A stretch of 64,000 bases of DNA from Phyllobates terribilis (lineage: Eukaryota): assembly GCF_046119375.1 (NCBI RefSeq), contig NW_027365894.1:1-64000 (forward strand), in the 5' to 3' direction. This document shows positions 14,098 to 28,173 of the stretch, in pieces (within the stretch, counting starts at the first letter, position 1; each line of letters opens with the position of its first letter). The notes below the pieces were generated by a model that saw nothing but the letters and a program-made list of their open reading frames with translations, had not been told where the DNA came from and made no database searches. Both the position numbers and the translations under genes were made by a program.

Positions 14098-15941
14098 CAA
14101 GTTGTTGGTGCCACTTTAGGATGCACAAACCGGATGTGCAAGGATAAAAGGAAAAAAATTGATCCCCGGAAGGACGTTGGAATGCCTTAGTTGCGTGCTA
14201 ACATATGGTGAATAGTGGCATGTCCAGGTTGGGCATGCAACTGTTCACATTTTCAAAAACAAATAAAAACCGCTTTTAAAAACTAGAAAACTTTTATTAA
14301 TTAACCACGATATTACTTAGTCTCATTACAATCTTACTTGGACCATATAAAACAATATTTACACGTTTTGATTAGTTGGGCCTTAATGGGGACATATAGG
14401 CCCAATTGATGAATAAATTGTTCATGAATTCGTCTTAGGCCCAGTACAAGTTTAATTGGTCGTATATAACTAGGTTTACAAGTTTAAAATTATTTGGGCG
14501 TTATAAAACTGACATAAGGCCAGTCAAGCTTACTCGGTCGTTATAACAAAGCTTATAAGTTTCAAACCATTTCAACCTTAAAAAATCCATGTAGGACCAA
14601 TCACTTCTTTAATCGAATTTTTATCAGTGTGCAATATAACTTATCATTGTTCTTTTACTACGTCGAGTCCGAATATGAGATTATCAACTCTAATGAGTAA
14701 TTGGGCCTAATAGTCCCATTAAGGCCCAACTTCTTTTGATTCGAGCTTTCATCCATGTACGAGGTAACTTGACCTTGTTCTTTCACTACGTCGAGTTTAA
14801 ATACGAGATTATCAACTCTAATGAGTAATTGGGCCTAAAAGGCCCAGTTACTTATTTGTTCGAGCTTTCATCCATGTATGAGGTAACTTAACCTTGTTAT
14901 TACACTACGTCGAGTCTGAATACGAGATTATCATCTCTAAACTATTTTTTTATTCGAGCTTTCATCCATTTACGAGGTAACTTAACCTTGTTCTTTTACC
15001 ACGTCGAGTTTGAATACGAGATTATCGACTCTAATGAGTAATTGGGCCTAATAAATCCAATAAGGCCCAATTACTTTTTTCACTCGAGCGTTCATCCGTG
15101 TAAGAGGTAACTTAACCTTATTCTTTCACTACGTCAAGTCCGAATACAGGATTATCAACTATGATGAGTAATTGGGCCTAACAGGCCCAGTAAGTCCCAT
15201 TAAGACTCGACGTAGTGAAAGAACTAGGTTAAGTTACTACGTACATGGATAAAAGCTCGAATAAAAGAAGTAATTGGGCCTTAATAGGCTTATTAGGCCC
15301 AAATACTCATTAGAATTGATAATCTCGTATTCGTACCCGATATAGTGAAAGAACAATGATAAATTATATCACATATCAATAAAAGCTTGATTAAAGAAGT
15401 GATTGAGCCTATATGAGATCGTTAAGGTCCAAATGGTTCGAAACTCATAAGCTTTGTCATAATGGGTCAAATAACCTTGTATTGGACCTACGTCAATTTT
15501 CTAAGGCCTAAATGATTGTAAACTCGTAAACTTGGTCGTATATGACCAATTAAGCTTGCAGGGCCTATGACGAGTTCAGGAATACTTTATTCATCAATTG
15601 GGCCTATCTGGCCTCCTGTTAAGGCTCAAATGATCAAAACGCGATAAATGTTGTTATATATGGTCCAAGTAAACTTGTAACTAGCCTAAGTAATATTGTG
15701 GTTAATTTATAAAAGTTTTGAAATATTTTAAAAGCATTTGTTTTTGAAAATGTGAAAAATTACATGCCCAACTTATTTTATTTTATTGTGGCATACCCGA
15801 AATGGGTATGTCACATGTTAACACGCCTAAGTTAGATGTGCTAACATCCTTCCGGGAGTCATAAAATATATTTTTTTCCTTTTTTCCTTGTACACTATGT
15901 TTATTTGTACTAAAATTACACACAACTTAAACGTGTTATTT
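14098..15941. mobile_element. Foldback/MULE-like non-autonomous DNA element with long inverted arms and internal tandem repeats
   Basis: Approximately 14100-14795 aligns to the reverse complement of ~15205-15941 along its whole length. Internal 94-130-bp repeats contain CTACGTCGAG. Exact termini and TSD are not resolved. Confidence 0.75.
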
Positions 15942-17716: not shown

Positions 17717-17864
17717 TGCTATGATATGAGAGAGTAAGAGATGAGAGAAGAGACTTGACTTCTTATTAGGTCACCAATAGGAGCCTTATATAGAGGTTAC
17801 AAGGAGAATCTAGGGTTTCTAGAATGTACATCCATAATATAATATAATATAATATAATATAACA
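17717..17864 (-). repeat. Bianca 3' LTR (148 bp)
   Basis: TG...CA termini, (AATAT)n microsatellite, adjacent PPT. Confidence 0.97.
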
Positions 17865-17982
17865 CTCCCCCTTGGATGTACATTATATACTGCCTCATTA
17901 AAAACCTTGTCTTGGAAAAACCCAATGGGATAAAAACCAAGACTAAGGGAAAAAGAGTGCAGTCACAATGCTCCCCCTTAAT

Positions 17983-20900
17983 TTAGTAAATGTCTCTCAA
18001 ACGACGCATCCCAATCTTGTGTAGAAGTTGTTGGAAGACTTTGCTGGGTAATGATTTAGTAAACATATCTGACAGATTCTTGCTTGACTGGACTTGTTGA
18101 ACATCAATCTTGCCTTGGACTTGAAGCTCATGAGTGGAGAAAAACTTTGGTGATATGTGTTTAACCCGATCGCTTTTGATGTAGCCTTCTTTGATTTGAG
18201 CGATACATGCTGCATTATCCTCATATATGGTTGTTGGGCTTGCTGTAATCGTTTCCATCCCGCAAGACGTGTGAACATGATTTATAAGTGACCTAAGCCA
18301 TACACATTCTCTTCCAGTTTCATATAATGCAATTAATTCTGCATGGTTTGATGATGTGGCCACTAATGTCTGCTTTGTTGAACGCCAAGAGATAGCCGTC
18401 CCGCCGTACATGAATAGGTAACCTGTTTGTGAAATGGAATTGTGTGGATCAGATAGGTAACCGGCATCACTATACCCAACAAGCTTAGCATTTTGCCCCC
18501 TTTCTGGTCTTTGAAAGTATAAACCCATGTCACTTGTTCCACGCAAGTAACGTAAGACTTGTTTGATTCCACACCAATGCCTTTTGGTTGGGGCTGAACT
18601 ATATCTTGCAAGCACATTCACCGCAAATGCTATATCTGGTCGGGTATTGGTAGCAAGATACATTAGTGCTCCTATTGCACTGAGATATGGTACTTCAGGT
18701 CCCAATATCTCTTCATTCTCTGAACGAGGGCGAAAAGGATCTTTTTCTACATCAAGTGATCGCACTACCATTGGTGTACTTAATGGATGTGATTTATCCA
18801 TATTGAATCTCTTTAAGACCTTTTCAACATAATTTGATTGATGAACAAACACTCCATTATTTGTATGCTCGAACTGTAAGCCGAGGCAATATTTAGTAGT
18901 TCTGAGGTCTTTCATTTCAAATTCCTTTTTTAAGTAGTCTGCTGTTTGTTTGATCTCTTCTGGAGTTCCTATGATGTTCAAATCATCAACATAAACAGCA
19001 ATAATGACACACCCCGAATTTGACCTTTTTATGAAGACACAAGGACTTATTTCATTTGTTATGAATCCTTGTATTCGTAAGTATTCGCTTAATCGATTGT
19101 ACCACATACGACCTGATTGCTTTAGTCCGTATAGTGATCTATTCAACTTGATGGAGTGCATGTGGCGTGGTTTTGAAATCAGTGCTTCTGGTAATTTCAG
19201 TCCTTCGGGAACTTTCATGTGTATATCTGTATCTAATTTTCCGTATAGATATGCGGTTACCACATCCATTAGTTGCATTTTGAGCTGTTCAATGACAGCT
19301 AAAGCAATTAAGAACCTAAGAGTGGTTGCATCCACTATGGGTTAATATGTATCAACATAATCTACTCCCGGTTTTTGTGTAAAACCTTTTGCGACTAGTC
19401 TGGCTTTATACCTTACAACCTTGTTGTTTTCATTTCGTTTCCGTACGAACACCCACTTGTAGCCGACTGGTTTTATACCTATAGGCGTTGGAGCTATTGG
19501 TCCAAAAACACCTCGTTTATTTAGAGAATCTAACTCTGCATGAATTGCTTCTTTCCAACTCATCCAATCATTTCTATGTCGACATTCTTCCATGGTTTTC
19601 GGATCATTATCATCCTCATCCATTATTTCCATCGCGATTGAATATGCAAAAACATTATTGATGACCGTGTCATTTCGCGGCCAACCTAGCCCATTGCTAG
19701 CGTAGTTAATTGACATTTCAATGTTTTCTTCAACATCGATGTTTTCGCTTTCATCACTATTTGGTGTGACTTCTTCGGGGGTCTTGTTTTCATGAATGTT
19801 TGTAGTCGGCATGTTTACAACTCCTGTTGTTGTTACTTGTCCTTTCCTCTTCCGGGGATTGACATCCTTGGAGCCTAGTGGTCTTTCACGCTTCTTGCGT
19901 ACCTGGGAGTCACTTGCAATTTGTTTCTTTTGGTTTCCGATTTGTACTTCGAAGCGAGCTGGTGCATTTTCAGCAGGTATATGTGATTTTGTCACTTTCT
20001 TGGCATCTGTAAACGCATCGGGTAGCTTATTTGCTACATTTTGTAAGTGTATGATCCTTTTGACTTCATATTCACTTTCACTAGTCCTTGGGTCTAAAAA
20101 TGACAAAGAGGTTGCGTTCCACGCAATCTCTTTCCTAGCTATCTCCTTTTCTTTTCTCCCTAGCGTTGGAAATTTTGTCTCATCAAAGTGACAATCTAGG
20201 TACCGAGCTGTAAATTGATCTCCTGTCAATGGCTCCAGTTATTTGATGATTGATGGAGATTCAAACCCAACATATATTCCTAACCTTCTTTGTGGCCCCA
20301 TTTTTGTTCGTTGTGGGGGAGGAATAGGGACATACACCGCACATCCGAAGACCTTTAAGTGAGAAATGTTAGGTTCTCTTCCAGAGACAAGATGTAATGG
20401 GGAGATGGTATTGTAAGCGGTTGGTCTTAGGCGAAGCAATATTGCACCATGTAAAATTGCATGTCCCCATCCTGATGATGGTAATTTTGAGCTCATAAGC
20501 ATTGGGCGAGCTATTAGTTGTAACCGCTTAATTAATGATTCTGCAAGTCCGTTTTGTGTATGTGTGTGGGGCACTGGGTGCTCAACCACGATGCCAACCG
20601 ATTGACAATATTCAACAAATGACTTGGATGTAAATTCTCCCGCATTATCTAACCTTATTCTCTTGATTGCATGGTCAGGGAAATGTGGCCTTAATTTGAT
20701 AATTTGGGCTAAAAGTCTTGCAAATGCAACATTCCAAGTTGATAGCAAACTTACATGTGACCAGCGTGTTGATGCATCAATCAACACCATGAAATATCTA
20801 AATGGTCCACATGGCGGTGTTATTGGTCCACATATGTCCCCTTGAATCCGCTCAAGGAACATAGGAGATTCTGCGTTTACTTTTGTTATTGACGGTCTTG

Positions 20901-21513
20901 TTATTAGTTTGCCAAGAGAACAAGCCGTGCATACGAGGTCACCCTTTGATAGGATTTTGTGCCTTTTAAGTGGGTGTCCATGTGAATTTTCGATGATTTT
21001 CCGCATCATTGTTTCACCTGGGTGACCAAGTCTATCATGCCACAAAGAAAATAATTTGTGATCAACTAACTTCTGGTTAGTTGTATTATATGATTCGATT
21101 GGGTAGATCATTGTTCCACATAATCCAGATCTATAAGTTCTCAATCTTTCTAAGACTTGCTTCTGGCCAGTTTGATGAGATGTGAGTAACAAGTACTCAT
21201 TTCCATTTTCTTTCATAGTTTCAATGTGATAATCGTTTTCACGAATGTCTTTGAAACTCAACAGGTTTCGTTGTGACTTGCTCGAATATAGAGCCTCTTT
21301 TATATGTAAGAGTGTTCCTCTAGGTAAAAGGATAGAGGCTTCGCCAGAGCCTTCTATAATATCGCTTGTCCCAGAAATAGTGTTAACACTGGTTTTTCTC
21401 ATTCGTAATTTGTTGAAAAACTTCTGGTTTTTCAAAATAGTATGAGTTGTAGCGCTATCGATGAGACATATCTCTCCTTTATTGACTTGAAGAATTTCAC
21501 CGGGTTTGCTCAT
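17983..21513 (-). pseudogene. Bianca pol (PR-IN-RT-RH) with its own ATG; single frame broken by two in-frame stops
   Basis: PR CLIDSATTH, IN WHDRLGHP...GDICGP...DNAGEF, RT MDVVTAYLYG...YVDDLN, RH GYSDAGY...DMFTK. TAA at ~20239 and ~19342 where Tyr/Ser are expected; all segments share one frame. Confidence 0.95.
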
Positions 21514-21894
21514 TCTATACAAACAAGAAAACAAAGTATTAATAATTCAAATTACTACTCTTCAGCTAACTGAACAAAATAAAAAAAAGTTTTGCCAAGT
21601 ATACGACTTACAGTAACACTTGTACTTCGAATTGAATTAATATATTAAATTAGAAAGATTAACTCATTAACATACAACTAAAATATACTAAAGACGTTCG
21701 AAAAAAGAAAAAAAAATCATATCAAAATATTATTCTAATAGCAAAAAGTCACTACACTTGCAAATAAAACTAGCTAACGGAAGCAAAAGAAAGATCTCTA
21801 AAAGGATAATTCCGAGAGGTCCTTCTATCTTATTACAACTGGAAAAAAGAAGAAAAATAAAATAAAATAAGGAAATCTAAGTAGTCACTAGTAT

Positions 21895-22959
21895 TTAATC
21901 CATGAAGAATTTTGCCTCTTCAGGAGTGAAGTCACCGAAGACAGTGTTCATTTCGGGCAAACTTTCATCATTTCCAAGGTTGTCAAAGAAATCAGATGTT
22001 TCCAACCCGGTGTTGTGTGTCTCAAGATTTGTGTCATCAGGGTTGGCATTTGTGAAGTTCATTTCCACATTTCTACTCTTTTCTTGTAAAGAGTCCTGAT
22101 ATGCTGCCATAAGATGCGTTGGTGCACGACAAGTGCGAGACCAATGTCCTGTCCCTCCACATCTATAGCACACATTTTCCACTTGAGTTGCTGACTTCTT
22201 TTGTTTGCTTCCAATGCTCTTCTGGACATTTGAGTCACTCCATGTGTGGTTGCGGTTTTCTCCACGCCCTGATCTACCACGACCGCGGTAGCGACCACGA
22301 CTCGGGTTTCTTCCACGCCCTCTACGGGAGGAGGAGGCGTTTGCTTCAGGCAATGCTTGAGACTAATCAGGAAGTGGTGCTGAACCTGTGGGGCGAGTTT
22401 GATGATTGTTCAAGAGAAGCAGGTTATTCTCTTCAGCTACGATCAAGCAAGAGAGAAGCTCGGAGTATGTTTTGAAACGACGCTCCCTATACTGCTGCTG
22501 GAGTATGAGGTTGGATGCATGGAAAGTGGAGAATGTTTTCTCGAGCATATCTTCATCTTTGATTGTTTCCCCACAAAGTCTTAATGTTGAGACAATACGA
22601 AACATTTCAGAGTTGTATTCCGAGACCTTCTTGAAATCTTGTAACCTTAAATGCATCCATTCGAACCTTGCACGAGGCAGGATGACTATTTTCTGGTGGT
22701 TAAACCTATCCTTTAGGTTTTTCCAGAGTTCAGATGGACTCTTGACTGTAAAGTATTGAGCCTTCAAATCCTCATGAAGGTGATGCCGAAGTAGAATCAT
22801 TGCCTTCGCGCAATCCTGCGGGGATGCACCAGATTCCTTCTTGATTGTTTCTCCCAGGCTATTGCTGGTCAAGTGAAGTTCCGCGTCAAGGACCCATGTT
22901 AAATAGTTTCTTCCGGAAACATCAAGAGCGGTGAATTCCAACCTCGCAAGGTTTGTCAT
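21895..22959 (-). pseudogene. Bianca gag with RG-rich region and CCHC zinc knuckle; one in-frame TAG
   Basis: ORFs 22363-22959 and 21895-22353 share a frame; CYRCGGTGHWSRTC knuckle; ends with its own stop ~380 bp before the pol ATG. Confidence 0.93.
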
Positions 22960-24176
22960 CTATGATACATACACAAAACAAAATAAAATAAATGAGTTTG
23001 GTAGAAGATATTCTTATACTGTAATTTCGGTACTCACGTAAATCAATTTCATCAAACAAACTCACGTTATATTTCAAGTAAATGAAAGTTACTCAACAAG
23101 CAAAAATGCAATATTGAATTGTGAACGTAAAATCATTATTGTTAAGATATGCAAATAAAATCACATAAAATTTATCTTATATATAAGATTCTTTTAAAAT
23201 TAATATATATATATATTTTTAATCTAGACCTTAACCGATATTCCTTAAAACATGTTAGAAAAACCATACATATAACCTAACGCGGTTGTTTGACGCCGAA
23301 CACAAACATGTTCCAAATAAGCATAAAATACATGGTTAATGGTCACGTAAACCACTCTAATTGGGCTAGGTGAGTGCGAGCAAGCGGTGGCATAATTAAC
23401 AATGTTTAAAGACTGCGTTGCATGTAGTGATTAGGCTTTAATTTCATCTCTACTTTCCCGTTTTTTTTCTTCTCGAAGTCAACTCTTTTATCACTTCAGG
23501 GATGTTTGATTCATAAATTGAATCTCTTCCGGGATCTATTGATATTACTCCTGGTATCAAAATCATTTCTGGAATTGTCGTATGCATAAATAGGGAGAAA
23601 AAAAATAGCTTGTTTATCACTTCTGGGATTTTTCATTATCACTTCGGGGATTAATTTGTATATCACTTCTGGGATTTTTCATTATCACTTCGGGGATTAA
23701 TTTGTATATATTAATAGAATGAATTGATGTCACTTCTGGGATCTGGGAATTGTTATGTATATAAACGGGTATATAAAAAAAAACTGAAGGAACTATAAGT
23801 AAAGAAGTGACATATTTAAGTCAGAAATCCTCACAAGTCACAATCTAAAAATAATAATAATAAAATATCACTGCAAACATTTCGGCAAATCCTAGCAATT
23901 TGTGAAACAATAGAAATTTCAACATTTACGTAAACGGAGAGGATAAATCTTAAGAACTAAATTAGACACCATAAATTGATGAAGAGAGCCGTAGATTGAA
24001 TTATCAAAATATAACATGCAAAAGCAATTTGATGAAGAGAGCCGTATAAGACTATAAAAATTATCAAACGTGCCGATTGGTACGAATCTCAATCAAGTAT
24101 TAAGCACGAGTGATCAATATTTGATGCGTATAAGACTATAAAAATTAAGAATGAAAATCTACCTTGAATCAAGAGT

Positions 24177-24188
24177 GTGCTGATAACG
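24177..24188 (-). promoter_or_regulatory. Non-canonical PBS CGTTATCAGCAC (complementary to a tRNA anticodon arm, probably tRNA-Ile)
   Basis: Abuts the LTR-terminal CA with no TGG. Its reverse complement GTGCTGATAACG matches the recalled plant tRNA-Ile(AAU) anticodon arm GUGCU-AAU-AACG except at the wobble position. Confidence 0.75.
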
Positions 24189-24331
24189 TGCTATGATATG
24201 AGAGAGTAAGAGATGAGAGAAGAGACTTGACTTCTTATTAGGTCACCAATAAGAGCCTTATATAGAGGTTACAAGGAGAATCTAGGGTTTCTAGAATGTA
24301 TATCCATAATATAATATAATATAATATAACA
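24189..24331 (-). repeat. Bianca 5' LTR (143 bp)
   Basis: Near-identical to 17717-17864 and followed on the minus strand by CGTTATCAGCAC. Confidence 0.97.
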
Positions 24332-25042: not shown

Positions 25043-28000
25043 ATGGCGTCTCTAGGTTCTTTCTTGTTTCAACTCGATGGAGCCTCAGCCACGGAGGGAT
25101 CTTCTTCCGCAAGGTCTCCTGTTCTGGCGACGATTCGGCGAGGGAAGCCACTGGAATCACTAAGTTTTAGAAATTCGGGAAATGGGGGTTTAAGAGCTAT
25201 GAATGTAGCTAGCGAACGATCAGTTCGATTGTTTAGAAGAACAGGGAGTGGCTCTCAGATGATCGCACGGTTAAAGGCTGCCGGAAAAGATTCTGTTGGT
25301 GGTGATAAAGAGATCGATACGGAGGATTCTGTTCAAGAAATCATTCAGAAAGGGAAAAGGGTTTTGGCTGTTCAAAAGGAGCTTCTTGAAGAGGTATCGA
25401 ATGGTATTTCTATCTGAGTTTACAGTTCATTCTTTAATTCAGCATTAACTTGTGATTATCTTCTTGGATTCTTAGTTTCTGATAGAGAATATAAACAAAA
25501 CCAAGCTTCTGAAGGTCATCATGAATCATGAGTTATTACCAATATCGTGTTTGGTATTAGTAGTATTGCTGGTTTGGGTGTTTCTAATAGCGTACAACTA
25601 TTTTCAGATTGCTGAAAGGAGGAAACGTGTTGCTTCTATAAAGAGTGATATGAACAATCAAGAGAGCGGAAACTCTTCTATTATTTCCACCATTTCTGCT
25701 TCAAGCATTGAAGACTCGGTTGACAGTCGATTTTTGGATGAAGAATTTGTATTTGAATCTGCTCCTTCTATTCCTGTCAAGCTTCCTGAAACCCCAACTT
25801 CCAGTTTCAATGCTAATACACCACCTGAGCTGGTTGAAGTTAGTATGAATTCATCGCATCTGGGTTCAGTTGTAGGAGATGAAGTGATGAACACGACTCC
25901 AGATTCTCTGTCTATGGATTTTGACAGTTCTGAGCGTCTAATAAAGATTGATCATCTATCAACGTTCGAGAACTTACTTGGTAGTATGTATGAGCCTGCA
26001 CCTGTAGATGAGAATCCAGGCCCACTGGCTGGTGAAAATGTGATGAATATCATATTGGTTGCTGCAGAATGCTCTCCTTTTTCTAAAACTGGTATTATTC
26101 ATTACCTTTCAGGTAAAGTATATTTGTTTAATATACTATCAGCAGTTAAAAATGATGAGTTTTTTGTAGGTGGGCTTGGAGATGTGGCTGGATCTTTACC
26201 AAAGGCTTTGGCTCGCCGTGGACATAGGGTCATGGTAAGTGTTTGAGGATGCAGTTTTGAATACTCAAATTATCATTATGTATAAGTGTAAGTGATGACT
26301 TGTTTTTTATTACAAACTCCTTAGGTTGTGGTACCAAAATATGGAGATTATCATGAAGCTCAAAGAGTGGGAGAGTTAAGGAGGTACAAGGTGGCTGGCC
26401 AGGTAATTAGCTGAAGTTAGATTTGAACTATATTCTACTCAATGAAAGATGATAAGAAACGGTATAATATGTTCTGCAGGACATGGAAGTTGCGTATTTT
26501 CATTCCTATATCGATGGTGTTGATTTCGTGTTCATTGAAAGTGCAATGTTTCGCGGGATTGAGAGTAATATATATGGAGGAAGTAGACAGGTACACACAG
26601 ACTAATCTTTTAAACCCCCAATGAAATCTTTTTTAATTCATAATTCTTCAATATTTCTTACTTGATTAATCAACTTCACTTGGGACTCTTGTAATACATA
26701 TGCAGGATGTTTTCAAAAGAATGGTTTTGTTCTGCAAAGCTGCTATTGAGGTACGAGTTACATACCCAAATAATCACTCAGTTTTCATTGCATCATCATC
26801 TCATTTGGATCTTGATCATGATCTTGACCTTTCTGCAATTTAGTGTTCTCACATTGTTGTACTTTTTTGTTGGTCAATTTAGTGTGTTTTATACTTAATT
26901 CTAATTAATTTCAGGTCCCTTGGCATGTTCCTTGTGGAGGTATCGTCTATGGAGACGGAAACTTAGTGTTCATCGCAAATGACTGGCATACAGCTCTGTT
27001 ACCCGTGTATCTCAAGGCCTATTATCGTGACAACGGACTCATGACATATACAAGATCAGTCCTTGTCATCCATAACATTGCTCACCAGGTCCTTTTTCTC
27101 TTCAGATTCTCATTTTAACCATCAAAATTCATTCACAAATATTTGTCATTATAGAATTTTCAAGCCAATTTACATATAACTCATTGAACATTGTATGGAA
27201 CTTGGTTCATTCACAGGGCCGAGCACCGATGGACGATTTCCCCATCGCCGATCTCCCGGATCACTGGCGAGAAAACTTCCGATTCTACGACCCAGTCGGA
27301 GGCGAGCACTGCAACGTCTTCGCGGCGGGCTTAAAAGCCGCCGACCGAGTCGTTACAGTTAGCCACGGATACGCGTGGGAGCTCAAAACGCAAGAAGGCG
27401 GTTGGGGCCTCCACAACATCATCTCCGAGTGCGATTGGAAATTCCGAGGAATCGTCAACGGCGTCGACACAAACGAGTGGAGCCCGCAAACCGACATCCA
27501 TCTCCAATCCGACGGATACACGAACTACTCCCTCGAAACCCTCCGTTCGGGCAAGTCCCGTTGCAAATCCGCCCTCCAAGACGAACTCGGCCTACCCCGT
27601 CGCGACGACGTTTTAATGATCGGTTTCATCGGACGCCTAGACGGGCAAAAAGGCGTCGATATTATCGCGGACGCGATCCCGTGGATGATGAGCCAAGACG
27701 TTCAGTTAGTAATGCTCGGAACGGGTCGACCTGACCTCGAACAAATGTTGAAGCGGTTCGAGGGGCAATATAACGACAAGGCGCGAGGGTGGGTCGGGTT
27801 CTCGGTTAAAATGGCTCATCGGATAACCGCGGGGGTTGATATTTTGTTAATGCCGTCGAGGTTCGAGCCGTGCGGGTTGAACCAGCTTTACGCGATGAAT
27901 TACGGGACTATACCGGTTGTGCACGCGGTTGGTGGGTTAAGGGACACGGTTTTGCCGTTCGACCCGTTTAACGATACGGGTTTAGGGTGGACGTTCGATA

Positions 28001-28173
28001 GGGCCGAGTCGGGGAAGTTGATCGACGCGTTGGGAAACGTGTTGGTTACGTATAGAGAGTATAAAGAGAGTTGGGAAGGGATTCAGAGAAGAGGGATGAG
28101 TCAAGATTTTAGTTGGGATCATGCGGCTGAGATCTATGAGGAAGTTCTTGTTGCTGCTAAGTATCAATGGTGA
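25043..28173 (+). CDS. SS2: Soluble starch synthase II, plastidic (GT5); join(25043-25393,25608-26091,26170-26234,26325-26402,26480-26590,26706-26750,26915-27088,27217-28173), 754 aa
   Basis: All introns GT-AG and the frame is preserved (2265 nt). KTGGL motif across the exon 2/3 junction, [38 protein letters not shown]; C-terminus AAKYQW; N-terminal transit-peptide-like region. Confidence 0.96.

Follow-up and report, generated by a model that had tools for sequence, protein, structure and literature searches.

Conserved splice signals suggest a separate spliced pol mRNA in Bianca-type copia retrotransposons

Gag and Pol expression in related elements

Bianca retrotransposons carry gag and pol in two open reading frames (ORFs) separated by a gap with a mean length of 172 bp, an arrangement that has been called a 'unique strategy' (PMC6317226), and a primer-binding site (PBS) of the half-tRNA-Ile type has been described for them (PMC6317226). 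Some Ty1/copia elements set their Gag:Pol ratio by splicing: EVD, BARE1 and Drosophila copia have a single gag-pol ORF and produce a spliced gag-only RNA (PMC5580714, PMC12786077). In these elements Pol is made as a fusion from the unspliced RNA, whereas in Bianca, where a fusion is impossible without a further splice, both proteins would need splicing. The Ty3/gypsy element Ogre resembles Bianca in having ORFs around an AT-rich spacer that ends in a splice acceptor (as related in PMC6317226); however, splicing of the Ogre spacer restores one polyprotein, while in Bianca no donor common to the families was found where the spacer begins, and pol has its own ATG. Among retroviruses, a spliced pol mRNA without Gag is a hallmark of the foamy viruses (Spumaretrovirinae), in which it is produced with a suboptimal 3' splice site (PMC3705302). 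Plant LTR elements have been said to be generally intron-less, with exceptions such as Ogre and EVD (PMC12786077).

No LTR retrotransposon with a dedicated spliced pol mRNA was found in the literature searched, nor was a report of a Bianca splice donor with two acceptors, although subscription papers and long-read transposon annotations may differ in this respect. The word Bianca is absent from the accessible portions of PMC5580714, PMC12786077 and PMC9097378, and Bianca splicing goes unmentioned in those of PMC5659011, PMC6696364, PMC11782641 and bioRxiv 10.64898/2026.08.14.744799. The first-pass annotation of this locus, which proposed that one donor and two acceptors supply separate gag and pol mRNAs, could not say whether this had already been published for Bianca. 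The separated ORFs had been, with their mechanism left open (PMC6317226); the donor, acceptors and leader intron, which the available text of that paper does not name, are described in this analysis.

A Bianca element with candidate splice signals

The window, meaning the whole 64,000-nt stretch of DNA that was analysed, contains a complete LTR retrotransposon on the minus strand, running from 24331 to 17717. The 5' LTR (24189..24331, 143 nt) has TG...CA ends and a TATATAA at 24264, the 3' LTR (17717..17864) is 148 nt long, and the two differ by 2 substitutions and one 5-nt repeat unit. A 5-bp target-site duplication, CTGAG, flanks both LTRs on the outside, and a polypurine tract, GGGGGAG, occupies 17865..17871. 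Directly after the 5' LTR lies the PBS, CGTTATCAGCAC (24177..24188), putatively of the Bianca half-tRNA-Ile type; the motif CGTTATCAGCAC also adjoins the LTR in relatives, and it presumably pairs with tRNA-Ile. The gag ORF (21895..22959) has 354 codons, including a CCHC zinc knuckle, and ends at its own stop (21897-21895), while pol (17983..21513) has 1176 codons, begins at its own ATG (21513) and encodes protease, integrase, reverse transcriptase and what we take, from motifs in the translation and without a Pfam match, to be RNase H. The Pfam domains of the element are, in order, PF14223, PF00098, PF22936, PF13976, PF00665 (31.5 bits, slightly below its cut-off of 32.6) and PF07727.

The LTR pair with TG...CA ends, the 5-bp target-site duplication, the polypurine tract and the domain order gag, protease, integrase, reverse transcriptase are those of a Ty1/copia element. 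The two ORFs around a non-coding region, here 381 nt long, and presumably the PBS type are shared with the Bianca elements of PMC6317226 (mean gap 172 bp), and the Bianca assignment is made by such described features, the trees having comprised homologues that carry no lineage labels. In relatives with an intact gag end the spacer is about 125-290 nt. Both ORFs of Salsa-1, a Bianca element of tomato (352 and 1173 aa; PMC11044480), match the window Gag and Pol in size. With foamy viruses the proposed scheme would share a Gag-free spliced Pol and a common 5' donor, and the suboptimal foamy acceptor is thought to set the Gag:Pol ratio (PMC3705302). The acceptor lies inside gag in foamy viruses but past the gag stop in the window element. 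Spumaretrovirinae have an env gene, and their integrase follows the reverse transcriptase. The window element differs in having no env, for which the 119 nt between the end of pol and the 3' LTR leave no room, in having a CCHC knuckle and in placing integrase ahead of reverse transcriptase; it is not a member of that subfamily, and any resemblance would be convergent.

The splice signals reported in the first-pass annotation are present in the sequence. The donor motif CAAG|GTAGAT (24157..24166, GT at 24162-24161) lies 26 nt after the 5' LTR and 14 nt after the PBS. The gag acceptor (22960..22985) consists of a U-rich tract and CATAG, directly followed by the gag ATG (22959), and the leader intron between this donor and acceptor (22960..24162) is 1203 nt long, about 70% A+T, and contains 23 upstream ATGs. 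Beyond the gag stop, the AT-rich, non-coding spacer of about 380 bp noted earlier measures 381 nt (21514..21894; 75% A+T, 49% T) and ends in a second U-rich tract with TATAG|A, a putative pol acceptor (21515..21540) that stands 1 nt before the pol ATG. The spacer holds 8-12 stops in each frame, which upholds the earlier view that Gag-Pol is not easily reached by frameshifting or readthrough; frameshifting and simple readthrough are in fact ruled out. Nor does the element have the single continuous gag-pol ORF of EVD and BARE1, since gag is closed by its own stop and no frame of the spacer is free of stops. Additional acceptor-like AGs occur in the spacer at 21839, 21688 and 21570, together with a GTAAGT at 21611, 98 nt before the pol ATG; the first-pass annotation had listed the GTAAGT and an extra acceptor at slightly shifted positions (the correct ones being 21611 for the start of the GTAAGT and 21839 for the end of the acceptor AG). 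If used, the AG at 21570 would likewise give access to the pol ATG without an intervening ATG, and from the AG at 21839 a different ATG would be reached first. The motifs are not unique, as the window copy has 8 strict acceptor-like sites between 24162 and 21500; the three named splice sites rise above chance because they are conserved across families (see below).

The window copy is a recent yet broken member of its lineage. Three in-frame stops were overlooked in the first-pass annotation, whose signals are otherwise as claimed: one at gag codon 199 (22365-22363) and two in pol, at codons 425 (20241-20239) and 724 (19344-19342). Neither full protein can be made from this copy; therefore, the claim must be judged on the lineage. 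In related copies in run X1 (window 17983-22959), most contig depth differs at the three premature stops, and these breaks look private to the window copy despite its near-identical LTRs.

Several other features of the window were observed. Inside the leader intron, two 46-nt tandem copies (23610-23701) with a recurring CCCAGAAGTGA-like motif might serve in packaging or regulation. At 14108-15921 lies a nested inverted repeat of 1.8 kb, which has internal tandem units of about 130 nt and is foldback- or Mutator-like by shape. On the plus strand, a starch-synthase-like gene (25043-28173; Pfam PF08323 and PF00534 on two ORFs) lies head to head with the element, its likely first ORF beginning about 710 nt from the 5' LTR, so that the element occupies the upstream region of this gene.

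Conservation across the lineage and loss of the leader intron

A search with an alignment of 40 Gag sequences yielded 83 related loci. Metagenome contigs contributed 80 (the best 80 of 195 confirmed) and prokaryote assemblies 3, and clustering at 80% gag nucleotide identity sorted them into 26 families. The window, whose identity to any of these is no higher than 77%, makes up a 27th cluster. Because the loci were fetched via gag, gag-less retro-copies could not turn up among them. Named Gag homologues come from eudicots and monocots. The plant Bianca sequence in public bacterial assemblies (L081-L083) and in one bacterial protein record (P0015) is most likely host-plant contamination; the 3 prokaryote assemblies concerned gave 3 pol matches, two on known contigs and one on a short new contig. 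Scans of viral contigs returned no Bianca, and two weak 41% matches (E 2e-4) were set aside.

All 19 scorable families have an AG no more than 9 nt before the gag ATG (62 of 65 copies, including two intron-less copies), and 13 of 15 have one within that distance of the pol ATG (30 of 35 copies). The gag count omits eight clusters (8, 9, 15, 18, 19, 21, 24 and 25) that are missing upstream sequence or the ATG; by eye, clusters 21 and 24 have a TAG 4 nt before the gag ATG. Measured against positional controls 20-100 nt upstream of the same ATGs, both signals are strongly enriched (gag, 16/16 families with 100 nt upstream against a control rate of 0.224, P 3e-12; pol, 13/15 against 0.163, P 3e-10), although these P values overstate independence because the families share ancestry. 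A stricter filter demanding a T-rich, AG-free stretch of 20 nt was passed by 11/16 families for gag (control 0.099) and 10/15 for pol (control 0.090). A peak of T with a trough of AG, followed by a peak of AG, is the usual profile of a 3' splice site. Here, the T fraction at positions -20 to -11 is 0.62 for gag and 0.69 for pol, and the frequency of AG per nt is 0.015 and 0.007, respectively; AG then reaches about 0.10 per nt at -10 to -1 before gag and pol alike. It is very likely that the pol site is a working acceptor. The acceptor trinucleotide before gag is TAG in 16/19 families and AAG in 3/19, while among the 15 families scored for pol it is AAG in 7, TAG in 5 and GAG in 1. AAG is a weaker acceptor than TAG. 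The pol AG is absent in the remaining 2 families (L014 and L032) and in 3/8 copies of family 12.

At the other end of the proposed introns, 12 of the 14 families with a locatable PBS have an AG|GT no more than 150 nt past it (shuffle rate 0.23, P 5e-7), with one of these passes (L072) depending on a PBS with 3 mismatches; family 16 and L009, which has a 22-nt leader, lack the motif. Several leader donors are weak, scoring 0.5-2.8 bits under a splice-donor matrix that gives the window donor 2.8. The segments from donor to gag acceptor range from 118 to 1530 nt and are 70-85% A+T, compared to 56-68% in gag, and ATGs are scarce in exon 1 (5 in 947 nt versus 20 expected at the intron rate, in 8 of 9 families with L033 omitted). 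The conserved donor and two acceptor/ATG motifs, which the first-pass annotation had seen in a single element, are a real, lineage-wide feature.

Two loci have very short leaders, L009 (22 nt, positions 1-130) and L015 (29 nt, positions 1-100), with no intron-bearing relative for comparison: L009 resembles a spliced junction without a donor, and L015 retains GAG|GTAAGA 16 nt before a decayed gag start. In addition, family 1 (L002-L062) has a conserved GAAG|GCAT about 26 nt past the PBS, upstream of the donor used in L069, which could be a minor GC donor.

Splicing of the leader has left a trace in DNA. In L069 (family 1, on a 90-kb contig) the leader is 82 nt long compared to mostly 237-254 nt in its relatives, and in L042 (family 12, on a 12.8-kb contig) it is 127 nt compared to mostly 342-376 nt. 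The missing 158-170 nt and about 245 nt, respectively, correspond exactly to the segment from the donor GT to the gag acceptor AG, with the gaps placed by pairwise alignment with cheap long gaps. An exact GT...AG gap was obtained with 4/4 references for L069 and 2/4 for L042; of the other two L042 references, L048 carries a substitution close to the donor and gives a gap 3 nt off, and in L039 the donor is mutated. The junctions overlap microhomologies of 2 and 4 nt. Possible deletions sharing the microhomology number 1280 and 340; each leader offers a single GT...AG option among them, and it is the one observed. The simplest reading of these alignments is that L069 and L042 arose by reverse transcription of spliced RNA, which keeps the PBS, and the donor-to-gag-acceptor intron is almost certainly spliced and retro-copied. 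L069 has lost the leader intron and retains the spacer and protease region, and at least some gag-spliced RNA therefore extends into pol with the spacer unspliced. Other leader-length variants exist, for example in family 16.

Routes to Pol

The Pol of these elements appears to be made as a separate protein. In 35/36 loci and 15/15 families, the protease Asp is preceded by an in-frame ATG at a distance of 8-30 codons (control 0.40). Among 51 long Pol homologues, 34 start 8-31 residues before this Asp and 7 start after it; of the rest, 1 is a chimera, 4 are continuous Gag-Pol frames and 5 are gene models whose N-termini differ (3 of these with Gag). Correspondingly, 107 of the 120 Gag homologues listed (from 141 longer ones found) have at most 400 aa, and none exceeds 815 aa.

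One possible alternative is that the spacer is an intron, as in Ogre (PMC6317226), and that the pol acceptor is spliced to a donor near the end of gag, yielding a Gag-Pol fusion from a subset of transcripts. The spacer is intron-like in composition (75% A+T, 49% T), three annotated gene models (P0251, P0252 and P0259) fuse gag to pol close to the pol Met, and donor-like sites occur late in gag in parts of two families, AAG|GTAATG in 3/8 copies of family 12 and AAG|GTAAGA in 2/3 copies of family 16, which under the splice-donor matrix score as well as or better than some leader donors. However, in the 520 nt that precede the pol ATG, taking in late gag and the spacer, no donor motif common to the families was found, and families 2, 4, 8 and 13 have no donor hit there in any copy, although weak non-consensus donors are possible. 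A fusion would have no need of a pol ATG conserved in 15/15 families, and its reading phase would have to co-vary with the acceptor, whereas the distances from acceptor to pol ATG occur in all three phases. Furthermore, not one of the 120 longer Gag homologues listed is over 1000 aa, pol sequence is attached at differing, inconsistent points in the 6 of 240 listed Gag homologues that include any, and L069 has kept its spacer. Expression of Pol through a spacer intron is considered unlikely.

It is also conceivable that ribosomes reach pol on gag-containing RNA, by internal entry or re-initiation in the spacer, with the AG before the pol ATG being incidental. Such entry has been proposed by the authors of Salsa-1, whose main text does not contain the string 'splic' and who report an internal ribosome entry site (IRES) between the two ORFs (IRESpy probability about 0.6), which is a prediction only (PMC11044480). 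The conserved ATG of pol would suit this route, and in Tca2 pol is expressed from a gag-pol RNA by an unexplained bypass (PMC2194720). On the other hand, it leaves unexplained why pol is preceded by a U-tract, an exclusion of AG and an AG profile matching those of the gag acceptor, which is supported by intron loss, and in relatives the pol ATG has a further 2-9 ATGs within the 150 nt ahead of it. Taken together, this makes internal initiation quite improbable. A promoter located within late gag or the spacer, from which a short pol transcript would carry a small 5' intron ending at the pol acceptor, is very improbable. Tca2 has a minor junction promoter (PMC2194720), and the GTAAGT at 21611 in the window could supply the donor of such an intron; yet among the 35 loci scanned this site, which had been offered in the first-pass annotation as an alternative donor, is a hit in the window only, and no spacer donor is common to the families.

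A separate, spliced pol mRNA remains the preferred explanation. Bianca-type copia elements probably make Pol from its own spliced mRNA that skips gag, in the manner of foamy viruses. The pol acceptor, the ATG belonging to pol itself and the lack of a shared late-gag donor point to a junction between the leader donor and the pol acceptor, which in the window would run from 24163 to 21514 across an intron of 2648 nt (the gag junction being 24163 to 22959). Of the alternative-acceptor model put forward in the first-pass annotation, the donor-to-gag splice now has two exact intron-loss copies behind it, while the pol-only mRNA is one that we infer. Neither predicted junction was seen among the 15 of 45 joints listed for run X1, whose contigs span all 30 bins. 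Among the fetched loci, no gag-less pol hits were found, as four odd rows proved to be three truncated gag starts and one fragment on the opposite strand, and none of these loci showed the leader donor joined to the pol acceptor.

Four distant relatives (P0287, P0288, P0289 and P0291) have a continuous gag-pol frame, which the first-pass annotation regarded as counter-evidence when present in intact relatives. These are intact single-ORF Gag-Pol proteins of 1459-1574 aa with a Bianca-like Gag. Their reverse transcriptase-RNase H identity is 50-54%, compared to 55-81% for the other rows (at least 61% in all but two), and their branches are long; support for placing them outside the split clade is weak (82/51, in a tree of 21 rows without the long-branch outgroup). 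They suggest a fused ancestor and are possibly a sister lineage that is still in the fused state.

Under the preferred model, a single LTR transcript would give rise to three RNAs. The unspliced genomic RNA would yield little Gag by scanning because of its many upstream ATGs (23 in the window intron). RNA spliced from the donor to the gag acceptor, a splice backed by the exact intron-loss copies, would be translated into Gag, and RNA spliced to the pol acceptor would be translated into Pol from its own ATG. An excess of Gag could result from competition between the acceptors, the gag acceptor being nearer and mostly TAG and the pol acceptor often the weaker AAG. Since loss of the leader intron removes the donor, intron-less copies would presumably be unable to express Pol, and this need for the donor would explain why the intron persists despite the retro-copying of spliced RNA that bears a PBS. 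Pol would also require a route into the particle that is independent of fusion to Gag.

On balance, we lean towards a broader reading in which the whole angiosperm Bianca lineage dropped the Gag-Pol fusion that its single-ORF relatives have and arrived independently at foamy-style expression, leaving the genomic RNA untranslated. One donor beside the PBS would then serve two competing acceptors, and Gag-free Pol would have to be packaged via RNA or through a new contact with Gag. What is new here is the proposed foamy-type pol expression in a copia element, of which one half is supported by DNA and the decisive half is one that we infer. This model offers an answer, testable by two junctions, to the question of Bianca pol expression left open in the classification of PMC6317226, and it runs counter to the general view of plant LTR elements as intron-less (PMC12786077). 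In addition, copies with exact intron loss provide a genome-only record of packaged spliced RNAs. If true, the model leads one to ask how Pol gets into the particle and how its protease is activated, and it would represent a convergent answer to the Gag:Pol ratio problem across a lineage of plant copia elements.
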